Of a DNA stretch of 64,000 bases, positions 1-58,814 are shown piece after piece. Source of the DNA: Candidatus Anstonellales archaeon (GTDB lineage: Archaea; Micrarchaeota; Micrarchaeia; Anstonellales; J096); NCBI GenBank assembly GCA_038890745.1, contig JAWAFD010000004.1, positions 1-64,000 of the forward strand, in the 5' to 3' direction. The notes under the pieces are model-generated. The model had not been told where the DNA came from. It searched no databases and saw only the letters and a list, made by a program, of their open reading frames with translations. The stretch's first letter is position 1. Every line of letters begins with the position of its first letter. The position numbers and the translations under genes were made by a program.

Positions 1-123
1 GAGGGAAGAAAGTTTAGAAATGCGAAAAGGGGCTTTGGGGATGTTATCCCCAAATGAGTTTAAGAATAGCGAAGGGGGGCGAGGCGGAATAAGCGCCAGG
101 GGGGTATTACCCCCCGAGGCTTA

Positions 124-247
124 TGCCGCAGGCCGGATTCTCAAACCCTTTTCCGCTGAAGCGCTTTTTGCGAAGCGAAAAGGGCTCTTTGAACCAGCAA
201 CACCTCGGTCTTCAGCCGAGTGCTCTCCCGGGTTGAGCTACTGCGGC
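124..247 (-). tRNA. tRNA-Phe(GAA) with 50-nt intron at T-loop position 59/60 (intron 138..187)
   Basis: Minus strand reads GCCGCAG TA GCTC..GAGC A CTCGG CT-GAA-GA CCGAG GTGTT GCTGG TTCAAA|intron|T CCGGC CTGCGGC A. BHB: TTCA/TGAG helix with AAG and AAT bulges. No encoded CCA. Confidence 0.95.
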
Positions 248-305
248 ATTACAATTTATTTTTTGCAGTATTGTTTTTAAATTGTTGCCTAGAACATACA
301 CTTTT

Positions 306-53237: not shown

Positions 53238-53238
53238 G

Positions 53239-53489
53239 CGCCGGGGGTGGGATTTTCAGCCAAACCACCCTCCAAAACATCCTAAACAGATATGGGGTGG
53301 AAGCGTGATGCGGTGAAACAAGTGCGACCCAAAAGTTTAGGAGGGTTGGGTCGCACCGAAGCCCTCCGGGTTGTTTCATCGCATCAGGGGGGATGACAAA
53401 GAGTTAAAGCCCCCCTGGGCTTTCGAACCCACGCACCCTTTCGGGTAACAGCTTAGCAGGCTGCCGCCATACCTCTAGGCGACCCCGGC
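53239..53489 (-). tRNA. tRNA-Ser(GCT) with 169-nt intron at position 59/60 (intron 53253..53421)
   Basis: GCCGGGG TC GCC..GGC G GCAGC CT-GCT-AA GCTGT, long variable arm ACCC-GAAA-GGGT, GTGGG TTCGAA|intron|T CCCAC CCCCGGC G. BHB: TTCG/TGAA helix with AAA and AAT bulges. Confidence 0.95.
53294..53391. mobile_element. 98-bp repeat with 81-bp MITE-like core (53306..53386; 16-bp TIR), inside the tRNA-Ser intron
   Basis: Reverse complement of 58166..58263 with one mismatch. TIRs TGATGCGGTGAAACAA / TTGTTTCATCGCATCA; inner 11-bp hairpin. Mobility is inferred. Confidence 0.7.
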
Positions 53490-58078: not shown

Positions 58079-58165
58079 GATAGTTGTTTGTATTTTATTG
58101 TTTAAAAATGTTTGGGGCTGCTGGGATTTCCACCAGACCAGGGGGTACTTTAACTTATTCTCAGA

Positions 58166-58263
58166 CCCCCTGATGCGGTGAAACAACCCGGAGGGCTTCG
58201 GTGCGACCCAACCCTCCTAAACTTTTGGGTCGCACTTGTTTCACCGCATCACGCTTCCACCCC
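58166..58263. mobile_element. second, inverted copy of the 98-bp repeat (core 58171..58251, perfect 16-bp TIR), inside the tRNA-Trp intron
   Basis: TGATGCGGTGAAACAA...TTGTTTCACCGCATCA; 97/98 identical to the reverse complement of 53294..53391. Confidence 0.7.
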
Positions 58264-58322
58264 CTATCGTATTAGGGGACCAGAGGGGAGGTCAGCTTAT
58301 TAGATGACCCCCCTAGCTCCAA

Positions 58323-58426
58323 CCCCCCTATCTTATACGAGCAAGGGTTAGCCAAGGGGGGACTTAAGCATATTCTTATTCCCCCCTCACGCTTCCACCC
58401 CCCTATTTTATACGAGCAAGGGTTAG
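58323..58426. repeat. 29-bp direct repeat pair (75-bp period) within the tRNA-Trp intron
   Basis: CCCCCCTAT(C/T)TTATACGAGCAAGGGTTAG at 58323..58351 and 58398..58426. Confidence 0.9.
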
Positions 58427-58814
58427 TCAATATAGGGGGTAGTAGAGTAAGGGGGTCTGCGATAAGCAATAGTACCCCCTAGTCTAACGGAGGATACATG
58501 GAACCTAGGGGGAAACTTCCCCCTGGGTTTGGTTTTGAACCCAGATATGCAGGTTTCTTCAACCATCCTCCCCTCAGGTTAAGGGAAGGGGTAGGAGATT
58601 AGAAGGAAATGGGGGAACCGTAGGTTCCCCTGGTTCCTCTCCTGGAGCCTGCCGTGTTGCCTGGTTGCACCACAGCCCCAACGCTTTTATTTCTATTCAG
58701 TATTTATTTAAATGCTTTTTGTTTTGTGTTTTTTGGGGGAGTTTTGCTATTCTTATTTTCCGCCTAAAAAGCAACGCATTTAAAACAATATGCTCAAATC
58801 AACGCGGTGGTTGG

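Follow-up and report, generated by a model that had tools for sequence, protein, structure and literature searches.

Can a transfer RNA (tRNA) gene that carries a 407-nucleotide (nt) intron still be a working gene, and how would such an intron be assembled? These questions are raised by a locus of a Candidatus Anstonellales archaeon (Micrarchaeota; assembly GCA_038890745.1, contig JAWAFD010000004.1), situated at 58113..58679 on the minus strand of the window, that is, of the whole 64,000-nt stretch analysed (G000:C4:1-64000). G000 is the genome of this window (989,524 nt, 5 contigs, 93.8% complete), G001 and G002 are the other genomes of the genus, and L-numbers denote the individual loci or metagenome contigs compared. 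The tRNA-Trp gene with two introns is real. Probably, it is also a working gene, whose protein-spliced intron serves as a safe harbour for non-coding mobile hairpins.

Exon 1 (58642..58679, 38 nt) provides positions 1-37 of the tRNA, namely the 5' strand of the acceptor stem, the D arm, and the anticodon CCA; exon 2 (58534..58554, 21 nt) provides positions 38-59; and exon 3 (58113..58126, 14 nt) provides positions 60-73. They are separated by an 87-nt intron at 37/38 (58555..58641) and by the 407-nt intron at 59/60, in the T loop (58127..58533), all on the minus strand. Joined, the exons form a 73-nt cloverleaf that ARAGORN calls as tRNA-Trp(CCA), and ARAGORN calls no tRNA at this gene in the unspliced window. 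The two-intron gene with exons of 38, 21, and 14 nt and a well-formed bulge-helix-bulge (BHB) structure at 59/60, put forward in a preliminary description of the locus, is thus confirmed, as is its expectation that standard tRNA finders would miss the gene. The 59/60 junction is a strict BHB, with 4/4 pairs in the central helix, two 3-nt bulges, and a 3-bp intron helix; the 37/38 junction, read by eye, is a relaxed BHB with 3/4 central pairs, the same as in most relatives. ARAGORN at four settings, 1987 T-loop splice candidates tested, an 18-mer count, and a search for the 5' half revealed no second tRNA-Trp in G000, the possibility of which had been left to be checked; lowered thresholds gave a few further Trp calls, weak matches judged spurious. 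An AT-rich box at 58705..58712 (minus strand), ~25-32 nt upstream of exon 1, is a candidate TATA-like element by the archaeal TATA consensus, and a similar box lies upstream of the genes in L002 and L030.

Comparison with relatives separates the gene from its introns. The 59/60 introns of G000 fall into three families by their ends: A (13 introns of 32-51 nt), B (six of 131-145 nt, together with that of tRNA-Trp), and C (four of 169-253 nt). In three orthologues (L002, L029, and L030), the exons, exon 1 (58642..58679, minus strand) included, are letter-identical to those of the Trp gene, the 59/60 introns measure 145, >190, and 50 nt, and both introns differ from those of G000; the orthologue of G002 has the 145-nt intron, of family B, at 59/60 and a different intron of 56 nt at 37/38. 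L029, a metagenome contig, contains the G002-type family-B intron with a cassette inserted that resembles the D cassette described below, and stops after >190 nt, whereas in L030 the intron belongs to family A and measures 50 nt, and a family-B core in reverse orientation follows directly after the gene. The T-loop intron is absent from 10 of 11 more distant loci and is 11 nt long in the eleventh. A pattern search across the class, with a bias towards short introns at 37/38, gave 36 matches, of which 30 were fetched and one was not a tRNA; 28 of the other 29 lack a T-loop intron and one has an intron of ~42 nt (four matches were read by eye, and two overlap the 11-locus set). Most orthologous tRNA-Trp genes have 37/38 introns of 11-37 nt, unrelated in sequence. 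Removal of the introns restores a canonical tRNA, with which the intron-less orthologues agree, and chance origin is excluded by the letter-identical exons around different introns in three orthologues and by the joined T loop of intron-less relatives. Judging from the close relatives with different introns and the distant ones mostly without, the gain and growth of the T-loop intron are recent, and it is the intron that turns over, not the exons. The Gly-CCC gene also differs in its 59/60 state within the genus, with a family-B intron in G000, a family-C-like intron in G001, and none in G002.

The contents of the long intron point to where its length comes from. It carries the first ~45 and the last ~45 nt of the 136-nt Thr-CGT intron, and its family-B ends are common to six other tRNA introns of G000. 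The hairpin H1 of this family-B shell (58502..58529, minus strand) has 11 copies in the genome, eight in introns and three in 3' trailers. Between the shared ends lie one reversed and three forward ~70-nt units (U), all on the minus strand: U1 (58434..58485), opposite in orientation to the other three; U2 (58350..58426), a G-run/C-run hairpin unit; U3 (58279..58349), in tandem with U2 at a 75-nt period (direct repeat D3); and U4 (58135..58278), interrupted by the D cassette (58171..58251, no strand assigned). The outer ends of U1 and U4 form a 24-nt inverted repeat (I1, 83%), so that the insert folds as one closed arm, sealed where these ends pair. The D cassette is 81 nt long with perfect 16-nt terminal inverted repeats (I5), is present in 14 full genome copies of 91-100% identity with varying flanks, and has the traits of a miniature inverted-repeat transposable element, namely terminal inverted repeats, multiple copies, and no coding capacity; a search of 301 class genomes, four of which had a match, yielded no partner element for it. 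The 87-nt intron holds a further cassette, W (58582..58637, minus strand; match of 94% over 69 nt), which stands in sense in the Trp gene and in antisense in four other copies beside tRNA-Ser(TGA) 3' halves. The stacked G-run/C-run hairpins noticed in the preliminary description are therefore there, but it overlooked that they are copies of genome-wide repeat cassettes; its reading of the gene and of its length holds, and it missed the family shared with six other tRNAs and the 24 parsed genes with a 59/60 intron.

These cassettes are found mainly around tRNA genes. The DNA of the tRNA-Trp gene has 70 matches in G000, merging to 28 clusters of 7,123 nt in total, and 23 of the 28 lie ≤100 nt from a tRNA gene or half (null mean 3.1, maximum 11, in 100,000 draws from 381 intergenic gaps); three of the remaining five are at contig ends. 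The U hairpin pattern has 47 matches in G000, and of 13 U hairpins inside introns 6 are in sense and 7 in antisense. The Leu-GAG and Ser-GCT introns are nearly identical except that the D cassette stands in opposite orientations in the two, and several trailers contain tandem repeats of the tRNA 3' end. We curated 43 tRNA genes in G000, 12 of which default ARAGORN found. The Trp intron is the longest member of family B and the longest intron among these 43 genes, a set outside which the His, elongator Met, and Arg-CCG genes fall and in which the Ser-TGA intron has an N gap.

Traces of the same traffic extend beyond the genus. A sister cassette that we call V, the 3' core of the ancestral family-B intron, was followed by an 18-nt pattern, which occurs in 10 of the 151 genomes of the order, in four families. 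Of the 18 copies outside the genus, all of which were fetched, 10 have their start 1-2 nt behind position 73 of a tRNA (nine placed by script and L098 by eye), one lies in antisense directly against a tRNA 5' end, and the other seven are at gene ends or at unclear sites; in three of the 18, 17-19 nt of the tRNA end are duplicated. The tRNAs with V behind position 73 are unrelated (Ser, Trp, Ile, Val, Arg, Lys, and Ala); in G001 and G002, V also begins the Ser-TGA intron at 37/38, and one internal site of V holds different hairpin inserts in different genomes. In both U and V, a G-rich hairpin carries the tag AG(A/C)C at its foot, in a layout like that of repetitive extragenic palindromic (REP) sequences. 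With the latter and their bacterial interspersed mosaic elements, as described in the available text of PMC3733652, they share short imperfect palindromes, a fixed tetranucleotide at one end, and head-to-head or tandem mosaics near gene ends, and the CGTC-type REPs are likewise without a known transposase there; they differ in a tag that is neither GTAG nor CGTC, in an archaeal host, in their location at tRNA loci and in introns, and in that no RAYT gene was found. On these sequence features, U and V fall outside the REPs, since the tag differs and no RAYT gene is linked, even if the extragenic inverted and tandem mosaics do match. Tentatively, and with rather less than even confidence, we suggest that the U, V, and D cassettes may form a class of non-autonomous mobile elements not described before, which would have tRNA stem-loops as targets, cross Micrarchaeota families, and create or refill BHB introns. 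If so, they would be the ‘introners’ of archaeal tRNA genes, the missing vehicle of tRNA intron gain, and five nested arrivals would be recorded in the 407-nt Trp intron.

Whether the intron can be removed depends on the processing enzymes and on its folding. G000 encodes a 375-aa EndA closest to the epsilon2 enzyme of ARMAN-2 (4fz2; E 2e-88), RtcB, and, 1.7 kb from the tRNA-Trp gene, archease; both the broad-specificity EndA and the ligase that a BHB intron requires of its host are thus encoded. From the junctions and these genes we infer that the epsilon2 EndA would cleave the precursor at the two BHB-type junctions and that RtcB/archease would join it. EndA can probably cope with a length of 407 nt, given that the insert is predicted to fold back on itself. 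The precursor folds with a z-score of -10.5 against shuffles and the 407-nt intron with one of -11.05, and the opposite strand of the intron folds equally well (-10.73). Rfam models detect no group I or II catalytic core in the intron, and no open reading frame of the homing-endonuclease type exists, the longest stop-free stretch being 68 codons in any frame, linear or circular, in agreement with the preliminary description. A second EndA-like gene, of 147 aa, lies beside that of the epsilon2 enzyme (G000:C1:152186-152626; L022:1339-1782). We considered it as a cassette-specific helper and rejected it, as it was matched in 110 of the 151 order genomes (some weak matches being the main EndA) and so does not track the cassettes.

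Taken together, these data lead us to propose that the long intron probably started as a ~140-nt family-B intron of the kind that this lineage exchanges between tRNA genes, and would have grown by DNA-level uptake of non-coding hairpin cassettes, by local slippage duplication, and by gene conversion between similar copies. The cassettes would land beside stem-loops, mostly at tRNA loci, and would persist where they are harmless and presumably neutral, i.e. behind the 3' end or in an intron that retains intact BHB ends; the insert of ~350 nt, with its inverted ends, would fold into one closed arm, such that the junction resembles that of a short intron. That the cassettes move as DNA we infer from their two orientations in introns, from the flipping of D in place, from the equal folding of both strands, and from a search for reverse transcriptase (RVT_1) without a hit in G000, G001, or G002. 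The mobiliser, we guess, could be a protein acting in trans on single-stranded DNA hairpins.

Several results weigh against the proposal of a working gene that harbours mobile hairpins. The fold containing the BHB is predicted to be less stable than the minimum-energy fold by 6.2-7.8 kcal/mol, and its predicted pairing is near zero (the BHB folds of two shorter orthologues lie above the minimum likewise; orthologue values, 2.5-5.9 kcal/mol). All 24 parsed 59/60 introns of G000 (Leu-CAA failed parsing) keep a 4-bp central helix and an intron helix of ≥3 bp, and the intron base facing position 57 is C opposite A in 0/14 and C opposite G in 5/10, but selection of the 25 introns was by eye and they have a common ancestry, which makes such counts partly circular and non-independent, and supportive only. 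Cassette ends coincide exactly with RNA cut sites, at 37/38 (initiator Met of G000, Ser of G001 and G002), at 59/60 (family C), and just after 73, which fits an RNA route as well. No public Logan unitig, from four runs of one study, spans the intron. Neither a Y1 HUH enzyme, a tyrosine integrase, an IS4/5-type DDE transposase (DDE_Tnp_1), nor IS110 was found in G000, G001, or G002; Y1 hits occur in 41 of the 151 order genomes and in none of the 10 that bear V, and four scans for viral carriers gave 0 hits.

The lack of a detected mobiliser favours an account without any transposition, in which slippage, hairpin template switching, and recombination between similar tRNA genes, in the manner of minisatellites and gene conversion, built the intron. 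The 75-nt tandem of U2 and U3, the tandem arrays that duplicate tRNA 3' ends, and strain differences visible in unitigs are what it would predict; it does not account for the fixed end of V 1-2 nt after position 73 of unrelated tRNAs and at gene ends, for the patchy occurrence of V across four families, or for the different cassettes at one internal V site in different genomes, and we regard it as unlikely. More doubtful still is a route through RNA, in which EndA/RtcB chemistry would ligate excised introns or trailers back into tRNA precursors, to be reverse-transcribed afterwards: it explains the position of cassette ends at the three cut sites, but copies stand in both orientations and also outside tRNA transcripts, one V is antisense at a tRNA 5' end, and RVT_1 was not hit in the three genomes of the genus. 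An equally doubtful reading accepts gene and intron but takes the 407 nt for a mosaic, created in assembly, of repeats that belong to several loci or strains. Indeed, repeats break the assembly at several contig ends, and the unitigs of the four runs cover every bin but break within the intron, with a repeat depth in X1 of up to 2231 against 66 in the flanks. Against a mosaic, contig C4 is without N, the module junctions of the intron are unique to this locus within G000, a locus-specific inner stretch was recovered without differences at near single-copy depth in X1 (58239-58335) and X2 (58239-58344), although one of the four runs, all of one study, may be the assembly source, and other introns of G000 reach 247-253 nt. 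The exact length of 407 nt rests on the assembly; the gene itself is confirmed.

Two further readings concern the fate of the intron and of the gene. Selection of the excised intron as a functional RNA (guide, scaffold, or regulator) seems very improbable to us: the fold is very stable and, among 33 distinct U hairpin sequences, 12 have T-A and 12 have A-T as the first inner pair, but not even the nearest orthologues conserve the content, the opposite strand reaches an equally good fold, and an Rfam scan of the gene and intron at both thresholds found nothing at gathering score, just sub-threshold hairpin matches. No C/D guide layout was found in the introns, antisense to tRNA never exceeds 7 nt, and no K-turn was seen in the U loops in a check by eye. 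Least probable of all is an inactivation of the gene by the insert, with a further tRNA-Trp in sequence missing from the assembly; the completeness of 93.8% and a BHB that is not the predicted minimum-energy fold would permit it, but the exons are unchanged, both junctions are intact, the same cut at 59/60 is required by 23 other parsed tRNAs, and the position upstream of a bPH_2 gene is kept, as in L014 and L030.

Additional candidates for a mobilising or joining mechanism were rejected. Thirty fetched Y1 loci, considered as a RAYT/REPtron source, look like ordinary insertion sequence (IS)200-type genes, some near tRNAs, with few nearby hairpin look-alikes (L129, L143, and L155), none on both sides. 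Cas1-driven integration was discounted: cas1 lies beside a 60-repeat CRISPR array in G000, but G001 and G002 have cassettes without a cas1 hit, and among the CRISPR spacers listed none matched the genome over >22 nt. TnpB ends were dismissed as a cassette source, the TnpB element of G002 resembling no cassette. A split or trans-spliced reading was suggested by the complementarity of W between the Trp intron and the leaders of the Ser(TGA) 3' halves, but both tRNAs own cis halves, and the complementarity is read, on the sequence, as that of an inverted cassette.

BHB introns in ribosomal RNA (rRNA) can be far longer than those in tRNA, and long BHB substrates are therefore not new in themselves. 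Some rRNA BHB introns carry homing endonuclease genes (PMC6125680, available text). For archaeal tRNA introns, a range of 11-129 nt is given in the accessible part of a review, which regards the mechanism by which introns transpose as unknown (PMC4090602); 407 nt is about three times that range, which bears out the preliminary description in calling the length exceptional, and the gene, if it works as proposed, raises the working size limit of a protein-spliced tRNA intron ~threefold over it. Asgard archaea have tRNA introns with median lengths of 22-23 nt, and a 2026 preprint, in the text available, gives no general arrival route and states as open how intron DNA enters archaeal tRNA genes (10.64898/2026.10.13.758758). 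The closest precedent, as far as the accessible text describes it, is ARMAN-2, with 59/60 BHB introns of the same site and motif class and the same type of enzyme, an epsilon2 EndA (Fujishima 2011, PMC3239211); the intron of G000 differs in being 407 nt long and built of cassettes, and at least 24 genes of G000 have a 59/60 intron. In the Thermoproteales, as summarised in the available portions of PMC4090602, PMC4033280, and 10.64898/2026.10.13.758758, related introns likewise occur in unrelated tRNAs, with DNA-level transposition proposed and the mechanism left open; unlike these, G000 has donor-like copies outside introns, both orientations, nested cassettes, and lengths beyond 11-129 nt (PMC4090602). 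The euryarchaeal tRNA-Trp intron at 37/38 with a box C/D guide, described in the accessible part of the same review (PMC4090602), is likewise longer than usual, but the 87-nt intron is without a C box or guide. A literature search, outside which most subscription papers and supplementary tables fell, found no paper on repeat-built or 400-nt BHB tRNA introns.

The Trp intron is thus an extreme case of a known kind of intron, and its value lies more in the visible cassette traffic than in its length. It illustrates how tRNA introns can be built and swapped via small hairpin repeats in or beside other tRNA genes, and, as candidate donors, recipients, orientation flips, and target duplications are visible in one genus, the question of intron arrival is testable by strain comparison with a defined cassette end. 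The 12 genes found by ARAGORN against the 43 curated show why DPANN genomes seem short of tRNAs.

Several minor observations accompany these results. At least four of the 30 fetched IS200-type Y1 genes (L136, L143, L148, and L152) are within ~700 nt of a tRNA gene. The 60-repeat CRISPR array and cas1 of G000 (C3:20601-35531) are next to rtcB, and the genes there presumably represent a type III module. In the window, tRNA-Ser(GCT) (53238-53489, minus strand), missed by ARAGORN, has a 169-nt family-C 59/60 intron with a D cassette, and tRNA-Phe(GAA) (123-248, minus strand) has a 50-nt family-A 59/60 intron; directly after the latter is a repeat, R (1-122), that also trails tRNA-Arg(GCG). An orphan tRNA-Ser(TGA) 3' half lies between two W cassettes (G000:C2:227687-227874), with the full gene on another contig, and is apparently a tRNA piece that moved with a cassette. 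Array-like trailers at G000:C1:179294-179794 and C1:252063-252358 alternate 22-25 nt of the 3' end of tRNA-Ala(CGC) or tRNA-Thr(GGT) with different hairpin inserts, and the tRNA-Ala(CGC) 3' end is also found behind tRNA-Ala(GGC). Two tRNA-Val genes, GAC and TAC (G000:C1:141697-141808 and C4:91661-91774), seemingly have an insert in the D-arm region, and the 37/38 introns of two Leu tRNAs (Leu-TAA, C2:248979-249321; C1:313722-314185) consist of a tandem ~77-nt repeat that is also in the Cys intron. Finally, a tRNA read as Ile at G000:C1:103867-104018 has the anticodon TAT, as reported for ARMAN genomes in the available text of PMC3239211.
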